In this document: piece by piece, positions 8,609 to 61,737 of the stretch
Layout of the letters: the number at the start of each line of letters is the position of its first letter
Position numbering within the stretch: position 1 is the stretch's first letter
Origin: a plasmid
Sequence record: NZ_CP106961.1
DNA: 64,000 nt
Reading direction: 5' to 3' (one strand)
Program-made: the position numbers and the translations under genes
The notes under the pieces: generated by a model
Seen by the model: only the letters and a program-made list of their open reading frames with translations
The model's database searches: none
Told to the model about the DNA's origin: nothing

Positions 8609-8856
8609 TACCTATTTCCTTCAATAATGCACTATTGCCATATCTCCAAGTGACTTCAAGATACAGAATTCAGAGTTGAGTCACTTGGGCATAGTATCCA
8701 ATATATTGGCTAACAACACAGTAAATAAAACTGGGTGGACGTATGAGTGTTTAATTTTCACTCACAAGATTTAGACCTGAACTCAAGACCAAGGAGCGAG
8801 CGGTAATGCTGCCAACTTACTGATTTAGTGTATGATGGTGATTTTGAGGTGCTCCA

Positions 8857-9132
8857 GTGGCTTCCATTTCCATCAGATGTCCTTCCTGCTCCGCTACTGA
8901 AGGCGTGGTGCGTAACGGCAAAAGCACTGCCGGACATCAGCGCTATCTCTGCTCTCATTGCCGTAAAACATGGCAACTACAGTTCACTTACACCGCCTCT
9001 CAGCCCGGTACGCACCAGAAAATCATTGATATGGCCATGAATGGCGTCGGATGTCGCGCCAGTGCACGCATTATGGGCGTTGGCCTCAACACGGTTTTAC
9101 GTCACTTAAAAAACTCAGGCCGCAGTCGGTAA
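8857..9132 (+). CDS. insA: IS1 InsA
   Basis: 91-aa ORF. Confidence 0.85.
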
Positions 9133-9554
9133 CCTCGCGCATACAACCGGGCAGTGATGTGATTGTCTGCGCTGAAATGGACGAACAGTGGGGCTACGTC
9201 GGTGCTAAATCACGTCAGCGCTGGCTGTTTTACGCGTATGACAGGATACGGAGGACGGTTGTGGCGCACGTCTTCGGTGAACGCACTCTGGCCACACTGG
9301 AGCGTCTTCTGAGCCTGCTGTCGGCCTTTGAGGTCGTGGTATGGATGACGGATGGCTGGCCGCTGTATGAATCACGCCTGAAGGGAAAGCTGCACGTTAT
9401 CAGCAAGCGTTACACTCAGCGCATTGAGCGACATAACCTGAATCTGAGACAACATCTGGCAAGGCTGGGACGGAAGTCACTGTCGTTCTCAAAATCGGTG
9501 GAGCTGCATGACAAGGTCATCGGGCATTATCTGAACATAAAACACTATCAGTAA
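9051..9554 (+). CDS. insB: IS1 InsB (made as InsAB' by -1 frameshift)
   Basis: 167-aa ORF typical of IS1. Confidence 0.85.
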
Positions 9555-9569
9555 GTTGGAGTCATTACC

Positions 9570-10030
9570 AAAAACTCAGGCCGCAGTCGGTAACCTCGCG
9601 CATACAACCGGGCAGTGATGTGATTGTCTGCGCTGAAATGGACGAACAGTGGGGCTACGTCGGTGCTAAATCACGTCAGCGCTGGCTGTTTTACGCGTAT
9701 GACAGGATACGGAGGACGGTTGTGGCGCACGTCTTCGGTGAACGCACTCTGGCCACACTGGAGCGTCTTCTGAGCCTGCTGTCGGCCTTTGAGGTCGTGG
9801 TATGGATGACGGATGGCTGGCCGCTGTATGAATCACGCCTGAAGGGAAAGCTGCACGTTATCAGCAAGCGTTACACTCAGCGCATTGAGCGACATAACCT
9901 GAATCTGAGACAACATCTGGCAAGGCTGGGACGGAAGTCACTGTCGTTCTCAAAATCGGTGGAGCTGCATGACAAGGTCATCGGGCATTATCTGAACATA
10001 AAACACTATCAGTAAGTTGGAGTCATTACC
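9570..10030 (+). mobile_element. partial IS1 (3' 461 bp) in tandem with copy B
   Basis: starts abruptly at AAAAACTCAGGCCGCAG (internal IS1 sequence) directly after the copy B end; sequence appears identical to copy B 3' part; truncated insB ORF 9620..10015. Confidence 0.85.
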
Positions 10031-10039
10031 TACGACATT
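10031..10039. repeat. target-site duplication TACGACATT (right copy)
   Basis: pairs with 2451..2459. Confidence 0.65.
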
Positions 10040-15827: not shown

Positions 15828-17224
15828 GGTTCAAAATTTCCCTGACCACACGCCTGAGCCTGATTTTTTCTGCGGTGATGCTTACGGTATGGTGGTTATC
15901 AAGTTTTATCCTGATTAGCACCCTTAATGGCTATTTCGATAATCAGGACCGCGATTTTCTGACAGGTAAACTTCAGCTCACCGAAGAGTTTCTTAAAACA
16001 GAGACGTTCCGGAACAAAACGGATATTAAGTCATTATCAGAAAAAATAAACGATGCGATGGTAGGGCACAATGGTTTATTCATTTCTATAAAAAACATGG
16101 AAAATGAAAAAATTGTTGAACTCTATGCCAAAAATTCTGTTGTTCCAGCGGTCCTGCTTAATAAGTCGGGTGATATTCTCGACTATATGATCCAGACGGA
16201 AGAAAATAACACCGTGTACCGCAGTATCTCGCGGCGGGTTGCCATGACGCCGGAACAGGGTAAAAGCAAACATGTCATCATTACGGTTGCCACGGATACT
16301 GGGTATCACACCCTGTTTATGGACAAACTCAGTACCTGGCTGTTCTGGTTCAATATCGGTCTGGTCTTTATTTCTGTTTTTCTGGGCTGGCTGACCACAC
16401 GTATTGGTCTGAAACCGTTACGGGAAATGACCAGTCTGGCTTCCTCCATGACTGTACACAGCCTGGATCAGCGTCTAAATCCCGATCTGGCTCCGCCGGA
16501 AATCTCTGAGACCATGCAGGAGTTCAATAATATGTTTGATCGCCTGGAGGGGGCATTCCGGAAACTGTCAGATTTCTCGTCTGACATCGCGCATGAGCTG
16601 CGCACACCAGTCAGTAATCTGATGATGCAGACGCAGTTTGCACTGGCTAAGGAAAGGGATGTTTCGCAATACCGCGAAATTTTATTCGCTAACCTGGAAG
16701 AACTGAAAAGGTTGTCACGAATGACCAGTGACATGCTTTTTCTGGCACGTTCAGAGCATGGTCTGCTGCGGCTGGATAAACATGATGTGGATCTGGCAGC
16801 CGAACTGAATGAATTACGTGAGTTGTTCGAGCCCCTGGCAGACGAAACAGGAAAGACAATCACGGTTGAAGGAGAGGGCGTTGTTGCCGGAGACAGCGAT
16901 ATGCTCCGACGTGCTTTCAGTAACCTGCTTTCCAATGCAATCAAGTATTCTCCCGATAACACCTGTACAGCGATACACCTTGAGCGTGACAGTGACTGTG
17001 TGAACGTGATGATTACGAATACGATGTCCGGCCAGGTTCCCGCTAATCTGGAACGTTTGTTTGACCGGTTCTATCGCGCAGACTCATCAAGGTTCTACAA
17101 CACGGAAGGCGCGGGGCTGGGATTATCAATTACAAGGTCGATCATTCATGCTCACGGCGGCGAGCTGTCAGCAGAACAGCAGGGGCGGGAAATTGTGTTC
17201 AGTGTGCGTCTGTTAATGGATTAA
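15824..17224 (+). CDS. pcoS: sensor histidine kinase PcoS
   Basis: 2 TM, HAMP, H-box [11 protein letters not shown], ATPase domain; start overlaps pcoR stop. Confidence 0.9.
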
Positions 17225-23206: not shown

Positions 23207-23785
23207 TTATTGCTGTCCTGCTTTTACCCGGAGTATGGTTTGCCGGGTGGTATTAAATTCTCTGGCAACCGCACTGATACTGGCCCCGGAATTAAGGCGC
23301 TCTGACACTATTTTTTTTTGCTCCTCGCTCAAGATGGGCGGACGACCGAAGCGTTTCCCGGCTGATCTTGCCCGAGAAATCCCTGAATGTGTGCGTTCAA
23401 TCAGCAGATCCCTCTCAAACTCAGCCACAGCTGAAATCACCTGCATCGTCATTCTCCCGGCAGCGCTGGTCAAATCAACACCTCCGAGCGCCAGGCAGTG
23501 AACACGAATATCTGACGAAGCCAGTTGCTCAACAGTTTTTCTGATATCCATGGCATTACGCCCAAGACGATCCAGCTTGGTGACTATCAGCACATCACCA
23601 TTTTCCATGCGATCAAACAGCCGGATAAATCCGGGACGTTCGCTGGCAGCAACCGAACCACTTATATGTTCCTCAATCAGTCGCTGGGGTCTGATGGCAA
23701 AACCCGCCGCTTCAATTTCCCTTCGCTGATTCTCGGTGGTTTGCTCAAGAGTCGAAACCCGGCAGTAAGCAAAAACTCGTGACAT
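23207..23785 (-). CDS. tnpR: serine recombinase / resolvase TnpR
   Basis: [15 protein letters not shown] catalytic Ser region, C-terminal HTH; ORF-track start 23860 is an extension. Confidence 0.8.
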
Positions 23786-25890: not shown

Positions 25891-26403
25891 ATGCTCATTA
25901 TTGGCAAAAAGCTCTCGCCGTATGCCCTATTGTCCATATCGGGCCTGCTGGCAGCGTCTGATCAGGCTGTAAAGTGGCTGGTGCAGCAATCAATGGCCTA
26001 TGGCGAGTATGTTTCGGTGACCCCGTTCTTTAACTGGGTGCACCTATGGAACACCGGTGCCGCATTCAGTCTTTTTGCGAATGGTGGAGGCTGGCAGCGC
26101 TACTTTTTTATCGGAATCGCGGTAGTGGTCTCGATTTTTCTGATCAAGCTGATCCTTGAAAATCGTCATAAAGGAGAAGCCATCGCTTACAGTCTTATCC
26201 TCGGTGGCGCCATGGGCAACCTGATTGACCGGGTCTTTCGCGGCTATGTTGTGGATTCCTTTGATTTCTATTGGCGAGACTGGCATTGGCCGGCCTTCAA
26301 CCTGGCTGATATTGCAATTGTCCTCGGTGCCTTACTTTTCGTTTCCAGCAGCTTGTTGGGTAAAAAAGCAAACACCAATGCCGAGCCGGATGGATCTGAC
26401 TGA
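25891..26403 (+). CDS. lspA: lipoprotein signal peptidase II
   Basis: 170 aa, conserved NxGAAFS and DxxDF(NLAD) motifs. Confidence 0.85.
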   Translation: MLIIGKKLSPYALLSISGLLAASDQAVKWLVQQSMAYGEYVSVTPFFNWVHLWNTGAAFSLFANGGGWQRYFFIGIAVVVSIFLIKLILENRHKGEAIAYSLILGGAMGNLIDRVFRGYVVDSFDFYWRDWHWPAFNLADIAIVLGALLFVSSSLLGKKANTNAEPDGSD

Positions 26404-26424
26404 CACCTACGCCTATACAACACC

Positions 26425-27714
26425 ATGACCGAACTTCCCGACAACATCCTTCACCTGCCGCAATACCAAGTACTGGGCTGCAAATCAACCGACGACGAAA
26501 TGCACTTCCAGGTGGACGTGCCCGATCCCATCGCCTGCGAGGAATGCGGCGTGCAGGGTGAGTTCGTACGGTTCGGCAAGCGTGACGTTCCCTATCGTGA
26601 TCTGCCCATCCACGGCAAGCGGGTCACTCTCTGGGTGGTCCGCCGCCGATACACCTGCCGGGCCTGCAAGACAACATTCAGGCCCCAGCTACCGGAGATG
26701 GTGGACGGATTCCGTATGACACTGCGGCTGCATGAGTACGTGGAGAAGGAATCCTTCAACCACCCCTACACCTTTGTGGCGGCACAGACCGGCCTGGACG
26801 AGAAGACGGTGCGCGACATCTTCAACGCCCGCGCCGAGTTCCTGGGGCGCTGGCACCGCTTCGAGACGCCCCGCATCCTGGGCATTGACGAGCTATACCT
26901 GAACAAGCGCTACCGCTGCATTCTGACCAACATTGAGGAGCGAACCCTGCTCGACCTGCTGGCCACCCGCCGCCAGGACGTGGTGACCAACTACCTGATG
27001 AAGCTGAAAGACCGGCAGAAGGTCGAGATCGTCAGCATGGACATGTGGAACCCCTACCGGGCAGCGGTCAAGGCTGTGCTGCCCCAGGCCCGTATCGTGG
27101 TCGATAAGTTCCATGTGGTGCGCATGGCCAACGATGCCCTAGAGAGAGTGCGCAAGGGCCTCAGAAAGGAGCTGAAACCGTCCCAGAGCCGGACTCTCAA
27201 GGGAGACCGGAAAATCCTGCTGAAACGCGCTCACGAAGTCTCAGACCGGGAGCGCCTCATCATGGAGACCTGGACAGGCGCGTTCCCGCAACTGCTGGCC
27301 GCCTACGAGCACAAGGAGCGCTTCTACGGCATCTGGGACGCCACCACACGGCTCCAGGCAGAAGCCGCCCTGGACGAGTGGATAGCCACCATCCCGAAGG
27401 GCCAAAAGGAAGTCTGGAGCGATCTGGTCAGGGCAGTGGGAAACTGGCGCGAAGAGACCATGACCTACTTCGAGACGGACATGCCCGTCACCAACGCTTA
27501 CACGGAGTCCATCAACCGACTGGCCAAGGACAAGAACCGTGAAGGGCGCGGTTACTCCTTCGAGGTGATGCGGGCACGAATGCTCTACACCACGAAGCAC
27601 AAGAAGAAGGCACCGACTGCGAAGGTCTCTCCTTTCTACAAGAAAACCATCGGTTACGGACTGCCGGACTTCGCAGAGGAACTCAACTACGGAGTCGATC
27701 TATCAACCATCTGA
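26425..27714 (+). CDS. tnpA: ISL3-family transposase
   Basis: 429 aa, N-terminal zinc ribbon CEECG..CRAC, DDE region. Confidence 0.85.
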   Translation: MTELPDNILHLPQYQVLGCKSTDDEMHFQVDVPDPIACEECGVQGEFVRFGKRDVPYRDLPIHGKRVTLWVVRRRYTCRACKTTFRPQLPEMVDGFRMTLRLHEYVEKESFNHPYTFVAAQTGLDEKTVRDIFNARAEFLGRWHRFETPRILGIDELYLNKRYRCILTNIEERTLLDLLATRRQDVVTNYLMKLKDRQKVEIVSMDMWNPYRAAVKAVLPQARIVVDKFHVVRMANDALERVRKGLRKELKPSQSRTLKGDRKILLKRAHEVSDRERLIMETWTGAFPQLLAAYEHKERFYGIWDATTRLQAEAALDEWIATIPKGQKEVWSDLVRAVGNWREETMTYFETDMPVTNAYTESINRLAKDKNREGRGYSFEVMRARMLYTTKHKKKAPTAKVSPFYKKTIGYGLPDFAEELNYGVDLSTI

Positions 27715-31032: not shown

Positions 31033-31532
31033 GGATTATGAGTTTAACTTGCAAGTTAGACGGACACTTTTCTTTTTGGTTAAAGCCATCCTCAGGGTGA
31101 GCAATGTCCTTTTAGTCCTAATGCATTGATATTTATTATTAATTTACCCTTACATCCAAGTCGGATAGACATATTTTTTGTCTGATCTGCAGGCATCTGT
31201 AAAAAAACTCTTAACTTGGACGGACAAATTACTTATAGAGCAATTCAAAACCGCCGCAGAAAGTGCCCCCTAGCATTTATTACGTAATTGATTCTAAATC
31301 TAAATGAGTCTGCGGGTTTATCACCAGAAGTTTGACCATTACAATAGAATAAATGTCAAACTGAGGTAACTTATGAACAAACATACCACAACAGAACTAG
31401 AGCTGAGCGCAAAAGTGACGCTGGCAGATTTTCAACTAAGTCTTCTGAAAAGGATTAATAACATCGCGGTCTCACTGAATCGCCACGGGTTTAACAGACA
31501 CCTCAGAGTCATTTAAGATGGCTTAAAGAGAG

Positions 31533-31817
31533 GTGCCCATGAGCGGTAAGCGTTATCCCGAAGAGTTTAAAACTGAAGCAGTCAAACAGGTTGTTGATCG
31601 CGGTTATTCTGTTTCCAGCGTTGCAACACGTCTCGATATCACCACCCACAGCCTTTATGCCTGGATAAAGAAGTACGGTCCGGATTCTTCCACTAATAAA
31701 GAACAGTCAGATGCTCAGGCCGAGATCCGCCGTCTCCAGAAAGAGCTGAAACGGGTTACCGACGAACGGGACATATTAAAAAAAGCCGCGGCGTACTTCG
31801 CAAAGCTGTCCGACTGA
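31533..31817 (+). CDS. IS3-family transposase OrfA (HTH)
   Basis: 94 aa with HTH and leucine zipper. Confidence 0.85.
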   Translation: MPMSGKRYPEEFKTEAVKQVVDRGYSVSSVATRLDITTHSLYAWIKKYGPDSSTNKEQSDAQAEIRRLQKELKRVTDERDILKKAAAYFAKLSD

Positions 31818-31873
31818 GGTACGTCTTTATCCGTGACAACTCCTGTTGCTGGCCTGTTCGCCTGCTCTGTCGG

Positions 31874-32686
31874 GTGCTGGATGTTCATCCCAGTGGTTTT
31901 TACGCCTGGCTTCAGCAGCCGCATTCACAACGCCATCAGGCAGACCTGAGACTGACAGGACAGATTAAACAGTTCTGGCTGGAATCGGGATGCGTCTATG
32001 GTTATCGCAAAATCCATCTGGATCTGCGTGACAGCGGGCAACAGTGCGGAGTAAACAGAGTCTGGAGACTGATGAAACGTGTCGGAATAAAGGCTCAGGT
32101 CGGATACCGAAGCCCGCGGGCACGTAAAGGCGAGGCCAGTATCGTGTCACCCAACAGGCTCCAGCGACAGTTCAATCCGGATGCTCCTGATGAGCGTTGG
32201 GTAACGGACATAACCTACATCAGGACCCACGAAGGCTGGCTGTATCTTGCCGTTGTTGTTGATCTGTTCTCACGCAAAATTATCGGCTGGTCCATGCAAT
32301 CCCGAATGACAAAGGACATTGTCCTGAACGCACTGCTGATGGCTGTATGGCGGCGTAATCCCGAAAAACAGGTGCTGGTTCATTCGGATCAGGGCAGTCA
32401 GTACACAAGCCATGAGTGGCAGTCGTTCCTGAAATCACACGGCCTGGAGGGTAGCATGAGCCGTCGCGGTAACTGCCATGATAATGCGGTTGCAGAAAGT
32501 TTTTTCCAGTTGTTGAAACGTGAACGGATAAAGAAAAAGATCTACGGAACGCGGGAAGAAGCCCGCAGTGATATTTTTGATTACATCGAAATGTTTTATA
32601 ACAGTAAGCGTCGGCATGGTTCTAGCGAACAGATGTCACCGACAGAATATGAAAACCAGTATTATCAACGGCTCGGAAGTGTCTAG
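31874..32686 (+). CDS. IS3-family transposase OrfB (DDE), expressed as OrfAB by -1 frameshift
   Basis: 270 aa with DDE motifs (WVTDITY, HSDQGSQYTS, E). Confidence 0.85.
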   Translation: MLDVHPSGFYAWLQQPHSQRHQADLRLTGQIKQFWLESGCVYGYRKIHLDLRDSGQQCGVNRVWRLMKRVGIKAQVGYRSPRARKGEASIVSPNRLQRQFNPDAPDERWVTDITYIRTHEGWLYLAVVVDLFSRKIIGWSMQSRMTKDIVLNALLMAVWRRNPEKQVLVHSDQGSQYTSHEWQSFLKSHGLEGSMSRRGNCHDNAVAESFFQLLKRERIKKKIYGTREEARSDIFDYIEMFYNSKRRHGSSEQMSPTEYENQYYQRLGSV

Positions 32687-32709
32687 ATTATCCGTGGCGA
32701 TTCACACTG

Positions 32710-33246
32710 ATGCCTGAGTTTGAAGATAAAAACCAGGCATTGGACGCAATCACGCTGGATGATGGTTCACTGATGCAACTGCTCTGCTCCATTCAGATGG
32801 AACAAAAGACGCGTGCTTCAGAACAAGAGATGCGTAAAGTACGCCGTCGCCGCGAAAATCTGGAGGCTTTTTACAAGAGCCTCCAGGAGCTTGGCGGCAC
32901 CCTTAAGGTTAACGACGTGGCCGATAAGCTGGGCATCACCCGCCAGGCAGTAAATGTCCGGGTGAAAAAGAATCAGCTCATTGCGTTTAAACAAAACGCC
33001 GATTATATCTTCCCGGCCTTCCAGTTCACCGATAAAGGCCTGGTGCCCGGGTTTAAAGAAGTCATGAGCGCGTTTGATGAAGACACGCATCCAATGCTGC
33101 GTCTCGGTGTGCTGAAAGCGCCGATTCAACTCAGTGAAGACGTGACAAAAACGCCGATTCAGATCATGCAGGATGGCGCAAAGCCCGACGAACTGGAGCT
33201 CGCAATACGTTCTGCGAGATTGTGCGGCAAGCATACTGCCCACTAA
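32710..33246 (+). CDS. hypothetical DNA-binding protein (central HTH), immediately upstream of 42-bp repeat array
   Basis: 178 aa, HTH-like LKVNDVADKLGITRQAVNVRVKKNQ; start 5 bp after the IS3 copy 1 end. Confidence 0.5.
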   Translation: MPEFEDKNQALDAITLDDGSLMQLLCSIQMEQKTRASEQEMRKVRRRRENLEAFYKSLQELGGTLKVNDVADKLGITRQAVNVRVKKNQLIAFKQNADYIFPAFQFTDKGLVPGFKEVMSAFDEDTHPMLRLGVLKAPIQLSEDVTKTPIQIMQDGAKPDELELAIRSARLCGKHTAH

Positions 33247-34736: not shown

Positions 34737-35221
34737 TCAGACATCCTCACTCTTAATATTTTTCAACTTCCTGATCTTTCTTGACAGTTCAATATTGTAT
34801 TTATGGAAATACTCAAGCGATTCTCTATAAAGGCAGAACTTACTTTCATACTCAAAAATTAAGCGCCATTCCCACTCAGTACATTTTGGAAAACAATTTA
34901 TCGAATACATTCCCGCTTTCAATGGTTTCACACGAATTGCGCGATGCATAGCCGGGACACCTTTTAGACGCGATGCGTAATCATCCCAGTTAATAGTTAA
35001 TTTCTTTGCACTACCAATATGTCCAAGTCTTGGCGCATAGCGACCAAGTTTTTCTGAATCTTGTTTTTGTACATTACTAGTTGAAATAATCTCTTTGTTA
35101 CGTGTTTTCCAGATAGTCCAGTAATTATCGATCTCATTTTTAGCTTCAGCAGCAACGCTATCAATGCTTCTGATGTTCTGCGCCCGATGTGCTTCGTACA
35201 ACTTGATTAGCAAATCTTTCA
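34737..35221 (-). CDS. hypothetical protein (low GC)
   Basis: ORF 178 aa; likely start MKDLLIKLYEAH at 35221; no recognisable motifs. Confidence 0.4.
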
Positions 35222-35470
35222 TGCACTCCTCCTGTATCTCAATACTATACATGAAATATGCCGACTTCCACATCGGATAGAAGAGGATTTTGGACTACAC
35301 CCAGACGAGTTTGTATGAATGTTCAAAATAGTTATGACGAGTTTTGGCTCAGCGCCGATACCACTTAGGTCGTGATAGGGATTAAGATTGTTAGGTGTAC
35401 GAATGGTACCATTAATAAAGTTACTTTTTTAAGTACCCAGCATAACTTCAAAAGTTTGATTAATACTTGT

Positions 35471-35665
35471 AACACTTTTCCTAGAAAAGTTAAACATAGT
35501 CATTTCATCCATGTTTAACTTTTCTAGGAAAAGTTAAACATGAGCAATTCATGTATGTTTAACTTTTTGGGTAAAAGTTAAACATATCGCAACCTTTTAT
35601 GTGGGCCTTTTACAGAAAAAGTCAAACATGGTGCGTGTAAATTATGTTTTTCTTTTATCCAAAAA
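35471..35665. repeat. array of AAAAGTTAAACAT 13-mers (5 direct, 2 inverted) including perfect 18-bp inverted repeat 35471..35519
   Basis: CCTAGAAAAGTTAAACAT-N13-ATGTTTAACTTTTCTAGG, then copies at ~35518, 35546 (inverted), 35563, 35607, 35651. Confidence 0.7.
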
Positions 35666-36918
35666 GTTGCACATAAGCAGCAAGCTAAATCCAATCTGTT
35701 GTTAAATTAAGACAGCCTTATGTAAAAAAGTGTTATATGCATTAAAGTTAGTATTGACCTACGGATCTAACTAATTCATTAACAGTGTTAGAGGACAGGG
35801 ACTACAGAAAAGTCGATTGAAATATTAATTTTTGCAGTTTTCTATTATAGTTTTCATTTAATAAAATTTAAAATTCCTTATATAGGTAAGGTTAGAAAGA
35901 GGACGCGTATAAGATGCATTTTCATTCACAACAGATTTTATTTAAGATGTTCAGTTGTTTTATGATGAAATGTCAATGAATCAGTATTTTCAACCTTCCA
36001 GAAACCATGCCTTTGCGAGATTAAGTTAATTAGAATTCCAATGATAAAACTTTCTTTTTAGCCTGATAATATTATAGCCATACAAAAACCCTCTCTCGCT
36101 CAAACACACACCAAGCATTTTTCTTGCACATTGCATAACAAAAAAATATATTGGTTCAAAGAAATTTTTCAAGTGCTGATTTGTGATCATAAGATATTTT
36201 CTCTGATGAAAATATCTTTACCAGATTCACGTAATATGGAGGTGATGAAATGTAACTGTTCAATTGTCGGCTTGATGATTGTCAGACACAAAATGGTGTT
36301 GTCTCGTTAGTAAACGCTTGGCATCCAAATTTATTATTTTTGAGAATAGGTTATTACTTCCCTCCCCCCCCCCCGAATTTATCTGCTTATTTCAAGAAAG
36401 TACAACACAATATTATTATGTGCACCCACGAGTTTGAAATATCTTCTTTGGAGACAATTGAAACTTACGCGTTATTACCTCGCATAGTATATCTATAGTG
36501 GATAAAACCCTACGAAACAGGTATGCCTTCCATAAAATTTCCGCTTGAGGATATGAAATATTAGCTGATCTAACCTTAGATAGCGTGTGGGTAAAAAAAT
36601 GAACCGCTTTGTTATGTCCTTAAGTTTGCAAGCCATCGGCAGGATTTTATTACTAGGTTGAGCGTCTTCATTTACGCGACTGAGGAATGAGGATAGAAAA
36701 TGAAACTTAGTGAGGGTGCGAGTGTATTGTTACGAGCGCAACTGTCAACCTAGATACAAGTAGCAAGCAGAAAGATGAAAAGGACTCCTAATAGTAAATA
36801 TATAATTTGTGTAAGTATCCTACTTAATCTAACCAGTTACAGTTAGATATTTCCTGATGTAGCCCCCTGAAACACCAGACAGTAGCTGTATCTCCAGATA
36901 AGAGATAGGCTTGAATAT

Positions 36919-37314
36919 ATGTCTAACGCTAACGCCAATTTTGAGATGACCGGGATCCTGTTAGGGCAAGAAGTCCGTAAACGTAAAACTCCTCAGGAGA
37001 AGATCGCCATTATCCAGCAGACGATGGAGCCGGGCATGAATGTCTCCCATGTCGCCCGCCTGCATGGCATCCAGCCCAGCCTGCTGTTTAAGTGGAAGAA
37101 GCAATATCAGGAAGGCAGCCTCACCGCCGTTGCGGCCGGGGAAGAAGTTGTTCCAGCTTCTGAGCTTACTGCTGCTCTGAAGCAGGTCCGGGAGCTTCAG
37201 CGCCTGCTGGGCAAGAAGACGATGGAAGTTGAGATCCTGAAAGAAGCCGTGGAGTACGCTCAGTCGCGAAAATGGATAGCGCACGCGCCCTTGTTGCCAA
37301 AGGACGGGGAATAG
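36919..37314 (+). CDS. IS2-like transposase OrfA
   Basis: 131 aa HTH protein. Confidence 0.8.
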
Positions 37315-60651: not shown

Positions 60652-61737
60652 TTAATTAAGACGGTTGGTGAGGTCAGTTGGATAGACGATGACATCGGTA
60701 ATGGATCGCACCGTTGCAGGCTTGAAGGAAACCATCTCGTTATCCATCACTTCATTTTTCGACATCAGGCCCAGCTGGTGGAAGGCAAACAACCCCGGCA
60801 GATTTACGCCGCTGCGCAACGTGTATCCAATCCCACCTGACGGACGCATGTTCGTTTCAAGCAGCACTGGCCTGCCGTTGTGGTCATTACGCGTCTGCAC
60901 ATTGATGAGGCCGTCCGCGTTCATAGCCCGGGCACAGTTACAGGCCAGCTCGTATGCTTCGCCGCAGTTGACAAGATACTGAAGCGCACCTTCTTTGCGA
61001 CGTCCCACCGCAGCAAGGACTTCACCCTTGTGCGCCAGAATATCGACAGAATATTCGGGTCCAGGCAGATACGGCATCAAAACAAGGGGGGTAAACGACT
61101 TAGCGGCGCTCAGCGCTGCAATATACTGGCCGGGGTTCACGATCCGGTTGTCCGGGTTGTTGAATACCGCCATGGAGGAGGCCTCGTCATCGAAACGCCA
61201 GAATCCCATGCCATAAATACCCGTGACGGGTTTGACACAAAGCGGAGTATCCGCAAAAGGAGGATTAGCGAGATGGTCCTGCAGCGCCGAAATCGAGTTG
61301 ATACGTACAGAAGGGACGACCGGCAGTCCACATTGCTGCATAAAGTCAGCGAAAGTAACTTTATCGTCGGCAAGCTTCAGCCAGTCAGAAGCCGTCGCGC
61401 CAGTGGTGAGCGTAGCGCCCGACGCTTCGATTGCAGCCCGATGTTGTTCGAACCACTGACAATTTCGTCCCGTATGAACAGCATTAATCCCATGTTTCCC
61501 GATAGTGTCGAGAATGAAAGCAAGGCGACTTTCCGGGTCAGAGGGCTCGATTAGCGCGTGGTCAGCAACGGCAAGTAATTCATTACGTTCATGACGATGA
61601 GAGGCATAAACAATAATATTAAAGTTATTAATTTTAGCGAAAGACTTCATTCCCTGAATAATATCACGCTGTGATGAAAGTCCTTCCATAAGCCAAATTT
61701 TGTTTTTCATTTTTAATTTATTACCTGATAAATTCAA
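60652..61737 (-). CDS. ATP-grasp enzyme, first gene of ter-associated operon
   Basis: ATP-grasp-like fold motifs (LPGPEYSVD, LLETNMRPSGG). Confidence 0.65.
   Translation of the reverse strand: MNLSGNKLKMKNKIWLMEGLSSQRDIIQGMKSFAKINNFNIIVYASHRHERNELLAVADHALIEPSDPESRLAFILDTIGKHGINAVHTGRNCQWFEQHRAAIEASGATLTTGATASDWLKLADDKVTFADFMQQCGLPVVPSVRINSISALQDHLANPPFADTPLCVKPVTGIYGMGFWRFDDEASSMAVFNNPDNRIVNPGQYIAALSAAKSFTPLVLMPYLPGPEYSVDILAHKGEVLAAVGRRKEGALQYLVNCGEAYELACNCARAMNADGLINVQTRNDHNGRPVLLETNMRPSGGIGYTLRSGVNLPGLFAFHQLGLMSKNEVMDNEMVSFKPATVRSITDVIVYPTDLTNRLN

Follow-up and report, generated by a model that had tools for sequence, protein, structure and literature searches.

Anatomy of a probable IncHI-type oriT region and its intact mobI gene on a Rep3-type plasmid

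The window analysed here, a 64,000-nucleotide stretch of the plasmid record NZ_CP106961.1, contains an array of palindromic repeats upstream of an intact mobI gene. Judging by the order and likeness of its parts, this locus is almost certainly a homologue of the transfer-origin (oriT) region of IncHI plasmids. The DNA next to mobI is poor in genes and in GC, as had been stated in a preliminary description made from the sequence alone. No open reading frame (ORF) contained entirely in 35273-36918 reaches 60 aa, the longest being 59 aa, and the GC content is 29-33% over 35300-36350 compared to 46-60% past 36800. The gene, the array and the elements that flank the array are as follows.

34737-35222, minus strand: mobI, intact, 161 aa, coding for a MobI/TraH-type relaxosome accessory protein, with the ribosome-binding site GGAGGAG upstream
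35417-35427, no strand assigned: palindrome AAAGTTACTTT between the array and mobI, possibly a regulator site
35457-35479, minus strand: the most conserved element, TGATTAATACTTGTAACACTTTT, found where the last 44-bp unit would have its half-site nearer to mobI
35467-35674, no strand assigned: repeat array of the putative oriT, five 31-bp units, each consisting of a 13-nt half-site, N5 and an inverted 13-nt half-site
35467, 35511, 35555, 35599 and 35644: starts of the array units
35726-35737, minus strand: second, distal occurrence of the conserved motif, TATAACACTTTT, in inverted orientation to that at 35468-35479, the two copies bracketing the array

The 13-mer AAAAGTTAAACAT occurs exactly three times on the plus strand (35485, 35529 and 35573) and twice on the minus strand (35511 and 35555). 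When one or two mismatches are allowed, there are five plus-strand copies, 35617 and 35662 being added, with spacings of 44, 44, 44 and 45 bp, and three minus-strand copies, the additional one being at 35644. The window contains nine matches against 2.0 expected, a number that none of 100 shuffles reached. The five direct copies at about 45-bp spacing that were described earlier are thus found only if mismatches are tolerated, because the exact direct copies number three. The perfect inverted repeat reported with them also exists, but it is located at 35480-35528 and not at 35471-35519, and its perfectly matching arms reach 24 nt (35474-35497 and 35511-35534).

Tandem Repeats Finder assigns a period of 44 to the array. 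Units 2 and 3 are perfect copies of ATGTTTAACTTTT-N5-AAAAGTTAAACAT, units 4 and 5 are degenerate, and unit 1 is a hybrid with the conserved element. Relative to the mobI start, the array occupies positions 245-450 bp upstream. When 33 units from six loci of the window's own lineage (clade A) are stacked, a conserved 31-bp palindrome emerges, ATGTTYRACTTTT-N5-AAAAGTYRAACAT, whose half-sites contain about 2 bits per position, whereas the N5 and N13 linkers contain 0.1-0.6 bits. The number of units changes in whole 44-bp steps, from five in the window to six in plasmid pLA-109 and seven in CP107263. The preliminary description rightly took these repeats of AT-rich plasmid DNA for an array of several protein-binding sites in helical phase. 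The single-strand fold of the array is strongly structured (z = -7.5), trivially so because of the palindromes. At permissive E-values, Rfam placed only sub-threshold eukaryotic microRNA hairpin models on the palindromes, which are noise, and a promoter and terminator scan remained at chance level.

The gene at 34737-35222 is annotated as mobI in all records, and its ORF is intact in every record examined. The product matches the Pfam family PF19456 (MobI) with a score of 55.1 bits, compared to a cut-off of 26.6. A scan against the copy of NCBIfam that was searched gave no model at E<=0.01; the name assigned by the Prokaryotic Genome Annotation Pipeline is 'conjugative transfer protein MobI(A/C)'. 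The suffix '(A/C)' is misleading, as the nearest relatives of this MobI belong to the IncHI lineage. Scanning contigs for further MobI relatives yielded one 5-kb contig with an identical gene.

The preliminary description had suggested a comparison with IncHI2 and other replicons. This pointer to the IncH plasmids proved useful: a counterpart of the array was found upstream of their mobI homologue. A tblastn search with MobI detected homologues of 35-41% identity in about 2600 plasmids (2593), most of which are conjugative MOBH plasmids; for the mobI genes of IncHI plasmids the values are 36-41%. In IncHI1 (pHCM1), IncHI2 and Klebsiella IncHI1B, this homologue opens an operon of the order mobI-hyp-mobH(traI)-traD. 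An intergenic region of 600-760 bp parts it from a divergent operon, and this region contains an alternating inverted-repeat array in every case. In R27, traH (R0122) adjoins trhR (R0123) (PMC7366339), and the mobI-type genes of SXT and R27 are situated next to oriT (PMC10838148). The oriT regions of IncHI1 (R27/pHCM1) and IncHI2 resemble the window in the order of trhR, array and mobI/traH, in the 44-bp period with half-site offsets of 20 and 24 bp, in the half-site frame AAAAGT...ATG, in the AAAGTWACTTT palindrome, in coding for a Pfam MobI protein, and in an identical 16-mer, TACTTGTAACACTTTT, which is part of the invariant element of the window. Thirty shuffles shared no word longer than 13. 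In work by Lawley et al. in 2002, the oriT of R27 was reportedly mapped to the interval between traH and trhR, and this intergenic region was reportedly mobilised when cloned.

The IncHI1 and IncHI2 regions differ from the window in several respects. Their TraH/MobI proteins are only 36-38% identical to that of the window, the core of their half-sites is GACCCT instead of TAAAC, and the 16-mer is located at the opposite end of the array and in inverted orientation. The Klebsiella IncHI1B arrays have periods of 45 and 56 bp. The half-site core is AAAAGTYRAACAT in clade A, which comprises the window and its relatives, AAAAGTGRCMCTAT in IncHI1 and IncHI2, and AAARGTACTAATG in Klebsiella IncHI1B. 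These three classes of half-sites coincide with three clades of MobI, within which the proteins are at least 74% identical and between which they are 31-40% identical. Furthermore, unlike in IncHI1 and IncHI2, trhR is a pseudogene in the window, and traI, the T4CP (type IV coupling protein) gene and traJ are absent, so that the module cannot act alone.

A search of a large protein collection revealed MobI proteins that are 73-81% identical to that of the window. Four contigs (L015-L018, one of them 125 kb long), which are untyped assemblies from metagenomes and read archives, code for MobI proteins of 74-79% identity. They contain a full IncHI-like Tra1 region with the order trhG-trhH-trhF-trhY-trhR, the oriT region, and mobI-226aa-TraI_2-T4CP-362aa-DtrJ. 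Their intergenic regions have the half-sites of the window (AAAAGTYRAACAT) and its flanking elements in the same order, namely the AAAGTWACTTT palindrome, the distal copies of GTAACACTT on the trhR side and the invariant terminal element on the mobI side. Unlike the window, they possess intact trhR and trhY genes and a complete mobI-traI-T4CP-traJ operon. These contigs are likely to represent the ancestral state and are candidates for the helper lineage.

The element at 35457-35479 is unchanged in all six clade A loci. In the window and in the four conjugative contigs, the invariant sequence AAAAGTGTTACAAGTATTAATCA stands in for the last half-site on the mobI side. This element, which contains TACTTGTAACACTTTT, lies at the end of the array nearer to mobI and is a tentative candidate for the relaxase or nic site, although a nick at this very position is rather doubtful. 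Direct copies of the distal motif occupy the equivalent position in L015, L018, L004 (pE61_002) and the IncHI1 and IncHI2 loci. The palindrome AAAGTTACTTT, which IncHI promoter regions also contain and which sits between the array and mobI in the window, also borders the array in the IncHI1, IncHI2 and Klebsiella IncHI1B loci and in L015 and L018. Sequences of the type AAAGTWACTTT occur 4-5 times per 10 kb in the IncHI Tra1 loci (L008, L010 and L011), both between and within genes. The window contains two of them, one at 35417-35427 in the gap between the array and mobI and the other at 61352-61362 in the region of the ter genes.

The DNA on the other side of the array contains three further features.

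36205-36687, plus strand: trhR pseudogene, divergent from mobI, its detectable part corresponding to residues 106-267 of the 274-aa TrhR
36364-36374, plus strand: poly-C(11) tract inside the trhR pseudogene, variable in length and without coding consequence
36855-36918, plus strand: left end of an IS3-family insertion sequence (IS), starting with TGATGTAGCCCC, with the ATG of orfA at 36919; it cuts off the trhR relic

By tblastn, TrhR of L015 and the window align over 172 aa (E=5e-14, 33% identity), and six or more in-frame stops interrupt the aligned stretch. The pseudogene and mobI point away from each other, which is also the arrangement of trhR and mobI in IncHI plasmids, and the coordinates give its minimum extent within the remaining ORF-free DNA. 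A TGA stop in KISA*GYEILADL is common to the window, pLA-109 (L003) and CP107263 (L013), and trhR must therefore have died before these plasmids diverged. The preliminary description had considered that the region might be the pseudogenised remains of a known gene with repeats that are not conserved in related plasmids. The DNA past the array is indeed a trhR relic, but the repeats are conserved in the relatives. Neither trhY nor any gene that follows mobI in the H operon, including the 226-aa gene and traI, left a trace in the window that tblastn could detect. Homology to the IS-free relative L003 ends at 36854, and about 1500 plasmids match the window only from about 36846 on, where an IS3 family transposase is annotated.

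The poly-C tract had been noticed before, with coordinates one base off (36363-36373), and its length had been suspected of being unstable. This suspicion is borne out by near-identical records that differ in length. The tract is C11 in the window, pE61_002, an E. mori plasmid and ESNIH1, C6 in pLA-109, and interrupted in CP107263. It is C10 in pLEC-5e18, a copy that is otherwise 99.9% identical, the C10/C11 difference being the sole indel, accompanied by one substitution.

From 32702 on, the window is collinear with the Leclercia adecarboxylata plasmid pE61_002, and the array and ORF-free region of the two are 100% identical. Upstream of 32702, the window is a mosaic relative to pE61_002 and is not collinear with it, meaning that the two plasmids are related but differently arranged. 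All plasmids with this segment belong to rep_cluster_2218 and are non-mobilizable in the PLSDB typing. No tblastn match to TraI, T4CP or TraJ exists in the window or in a complete 93-kb relative, and none of the three is annotated. For the relative, annotation and tblastn likewise reveal no relaxase, T4CP or type IV secretion system (T4SS) gene. The element is not self-transmissible and is at most dependent on functions provided in trans. Among the 2593 PLSDB plasmids with MobI homologues, 558 are typed as non-mobilizable and 184 as mobilizable; pA2359-IMP (L021), which has retained an array of the Klebsiella type, is one example. IncHI-type oriT-mobI segments in an orphaned or truncated state may be frequent.

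Some plasmids of the family contain two relics of clade A Tra1 regions. A second, diverged array of the oriT type, about 74-77% identical to that of the window, is found in pE61_002 (9020-9560 of L004, corresponding to about 16100-16650 of the record) and in pLEC-000f (6130-6560 of L006), and not in the window. It retains the half-sites and flanking motifs and adjoins a mobI pseudogene (ATGAGAAACTTGTAA...) and a remnant of a NERD gene. The 'hypothetical protein' WP_130588776.1 overlaps this mobI pseudogene on the opposite strand.

Although the relaxase is absent, mobI has not been left to decay. The three orphan mobI alleles that were compared already had the trhR stop codon in common. Of their 17 variable sites, 11 are synonymous and six are non-synonymous, compared to a neutral expectation of 19.5% synonymous (P=6e-5), and the pairwise ratios of non-synonymous to synonymous substitution rates are 0.10-0.19. 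mobI is 97.3-97.5% identical, whereas the adjoining pseudogene and the distal DNA are 86-94% identical. Purifying selection on mobI and its better conservation argue that MobI kept a function after the relaxase had been lost. This selection need not be for mobilisation alone, since an oriT-mobI pair can interfere with the transfer of a related plasmid, as with pAQU1 and pVCR94 (PMC13635750).

The interpretation that we slightly favour is that the region is an orphan oriT-mobI module derived from an IncHI-like Tra1 region, now residing on a Rep3 plasmid and requiring a helper MOBH relaxase in trans. It would be the cis-acting core of a truncated, MOBH1-type Tra1 region, in which trhR is dead and the putative oriT is accompanied by a living mobI. 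The 31-bp palindromes recur every 44 bp, or about four helical turns, which would bring the half-sites onto one face of the DNA. The half-sites are most likely the binding sites for MobI multimers. The MobI of IncA/C plasmids gives a single peak at oriT in chromatin immunoprecipitation with exonuclease treatment (ChIP-exo), multimerises, and recruits TraI via the C-terminal domain of the relaxase; R27 TraH is cited as the MOBH11 counterpart of MobI (PMC13635750).

Several observations make it probable that MobI binds the array. The IncHI half-sites are confined to the array in 10-kb loci that include the F-operon promoter activated by TrhR and TrhY. Both of these activators are gone from the orphan module, yet its array is kept. 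The binding of IncA/C MobI to oriT, with R27 TraH as the counterpart, and the position of the mobI-type genes of SXT and R27 next to oriT point in the same direction. Another protein considered as the binder was the winged helix-turn-helix (wHTH) 'DNA-binding protein' encoded near mobI (213 aa in pE61_002). It was rejected, because its gene is absent from the loci of the conjugative relatives and IS-disrupted in the window, yet the array persists; this leaves MobI as the more probable candidate. The gene, at 31373-33243 of the window, is split by a 1.2-kb insertion at 31478-32703, with residues 1-35 encoded at 31373-31477 and residues 34-213 at 32704-33243.

If the analogy with IncA/C MobI and R27 TraH holds, MobI bound to the array would recruit a MOBH relaxase (TraI), and the nick would be introduced nearby. 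Since these plasmids lack a relaxase, a coupling protein and a T4SS, they would depend on a helper, presumably a co-resident IncHI-like plasmid, for TraI and the mating apparatus. mobI would probably be the leading gene transferred. The chances that mobilisation in trans takes place at present are, in our estimate, evenly balanced. A more speculative proposal, which we consider possible but hold with less confidence, is that the module actively serves for hitch-hiking. In that case, an uncultured or untyped IncHI-like plasmid lineage would move large metal-resistance plasmids of the Rep3 type in Leclercia, Enterobacter and Escherichia, and these would capture its relaxase with their own MobI.

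A number of facts weigh against a functional module. The segment is decaying, with trhR dead, the H operon gone past mobI and an IS 1.2 kb away, and the second locus of pE61_002 has a dead mobI. The 16-mer TACTTGTAACACTTTT has a different position and orientation in IncHI1 and IncHI2 than in the window. The exact repeat copies could stem from a recent duplication of the 44-bp unit and not from selection. No PLSDB plasmid has a MobI of 60-95% identity, and a matching helper is for this reason known only from metagenome and read-archive contigs. No base-resolution map of MobI binding or nicking in IncHI plasmids was found in the literature consulted. The AlphaFold2 model of MobI, built from a six-sequence alignment, has a mean predicted local distance difference test score (pLDDT) of 58.9, which is too poor for conclusions on DNA-binding geometry.

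The alternative that survives best is that the locus is a functionless relic, a decaying fragment of an IncHI-type oriT-mobI homologue carried along on a metal-resistance plasmid. We regard this as unlikely, although several properties of the locus agree with it: the multiple stops in trhR, the cut straight after mobI with the loss of the 226-aa gene and traI, the IS3-family insertion at 36855, the paralogous locus with a mobI pseudogene in pE61_002 and pLEC-000f, and the lack of a close helper in PLSDB. A relic, however, does not account well for a mobI without disruption in any of the records examined and with purifying selection acting on its orphan alleles, for the better conservation of mobI and its upstream region compared to the adjoining pseudogene, or for half-sites that remain at near-maximal information while their linkers drift.

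It is improbable that the array is only a regulatory operator and not an oriT. As an operator, it would serve activators of the TrhR/TrhY type, autorepression by MobI or nucleation of H-NS at the divergent mobI and trhR promoters. There are grounds for this view, as the oriT of IncA/C overlaps the mobI promoters (PMC5587640), the H operon of R27 is activated by TrhR/TrhY while trhR is silenced by H-NS (PMC7366339), and the region has the low GC content noted above on plasmids with H-NS paralogue genes. Nevertheless, the half-sites of IncHI plasmids are missing from the F-operon promoter that TrhR/TrhY activate in the same loci, the array is conserved in the orphan module even though trhR is dead and trhY is gone, and the promoter scan did not exceed chance. 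Regulation is, moreover, compatible with an oriT function and is not an alternative to it.

The preliminary description had read the array as an iteron-type origin of vegetative replication (oriV), a reading suggested by clustered and phased repeats in AT-rich DNA, which is now very improbable. No rep gene adjoins the array or lies anywhere in the window. The Rep3, SopA and ParB proteins of the family do not map to the window, the sole match being a 37-aa SopA fragment elsewhere. In the complete 93-kb relative, the Rep3-family initiator is flanked by six 17-bp iterons of its own, different from the array, with a spacing of about 22 bp and about 20 kb from mobI. The sites of the array are inverted pairs that alternate in orientation at 44 bp and not direct iterons, and in the conjugative relatives the array sits in the middle of Tra1. 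A check for DnaA boxes, which had been proposed with the oriV reading, revealed no cluster, and the three matches with one mismatch are at chance level.

The sopC centromere of F consists of tandem 43-bp units with an inverted repeat in each; despite this similarity in unit length and palindromic content, a partition centromere is the least credible explanation of the array, because no parAB genes lie next to it, the sopAB genes of the 93-kb relative, about 20 kb from mobI, have a palindromic array of their own (26 bp x5), located directly downstream of parB, and the array goes with mobI and not with partition genes in every lineage examined. In NZ_CP107263.1 (L013), 23237-23365 and 26129-27252 hold a 26 bp x5 centromere-like array containing GGGACC-N-GGTCCC and the Rep3 iterons TACATGYTRYGACACAC, which form two groups flanking rep.

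An orphan oriT-mobI module can be compared with two systems outside the IncHI lineage. In IncC plasmids, oriT is likewise located directly upstream of mobI and is AT-rich, with direct and inverted repeats, and the MobI bound there recruits the MOBH1 relaxase (PMC5587640, PMC13635750); the same position immediately upstream of mobI is reported for IncA/C (PMC5587640). As described in the literature, however, the IncC oriT is about 150-185 bp long, with inverted repeats of 4-7 bp and two or three overlapping 14-bp direct repeats. These descriptions do not include a 44-bp array of 31-bp palindromes, and the relaxase of IncC is MOBH12, not MOBH11.

Integrative and mobilizable elements that have mobI and oriT, and no relaxase, are mobilised by the TraI of a helper (PMC7449626). 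Genomic islands of the MGIVchHai6 type resemble the window in having no relaxase, in keeping a mobI homologue and in having the cognate oriT abut the 5' end of mobI. They depend on TraI, TraD, TraJ and the T4SS of the helper (PMC7449626). Like them, the window keeps an intact mobI without a relaxase, and in its case mobI is under purifying selection. These islands differ in being chromosomal, in having int and xis and promoters activated by AcaCD, and in riding on IncC plasmids, whereas the window's module is of IncHI lineage, resides on a Rep3 plasmid and is only proposed to be mobilised.

Predictions of plasmid mobility as a rule rely on relaxase genes, and all plasmids of the present family are typed as non-mobilizable. 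If the oriT and its MobI adaptor are functional, plasmids with copper, silver, arsenic and tellurite resistance, and sometimes KPC, could spread wherever they meet a compatible IncHI-type helper. In view of the 558 PLSDB plasmids that have MobI and are typed as non-mobilizable, the issue possibly extends beyond rep_cluster_2218. Should the hitch-hiking proposal be true, the core of the 13-bp half-sites in the 44-bp array would amount to a readable specificity code, predicting which IncHI-type helper moves which oriT carrier. How MOBH relaxosomes are organised at the level of bases is as yet ill defined, and the comparison yields a testable anatomy of an IncHI-type oriT, with 31-bp palindromes, 44-bp phasing, clade-specific cores and one invariant candidate for nic.

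Elsewhere in the window, 8802-10032 holds an IS1-like copy and, after it, a second, directly oriented copy of about 460 bp from the 3' part of that element, the sequence at 9100-9560 being found again at 9570-10030.

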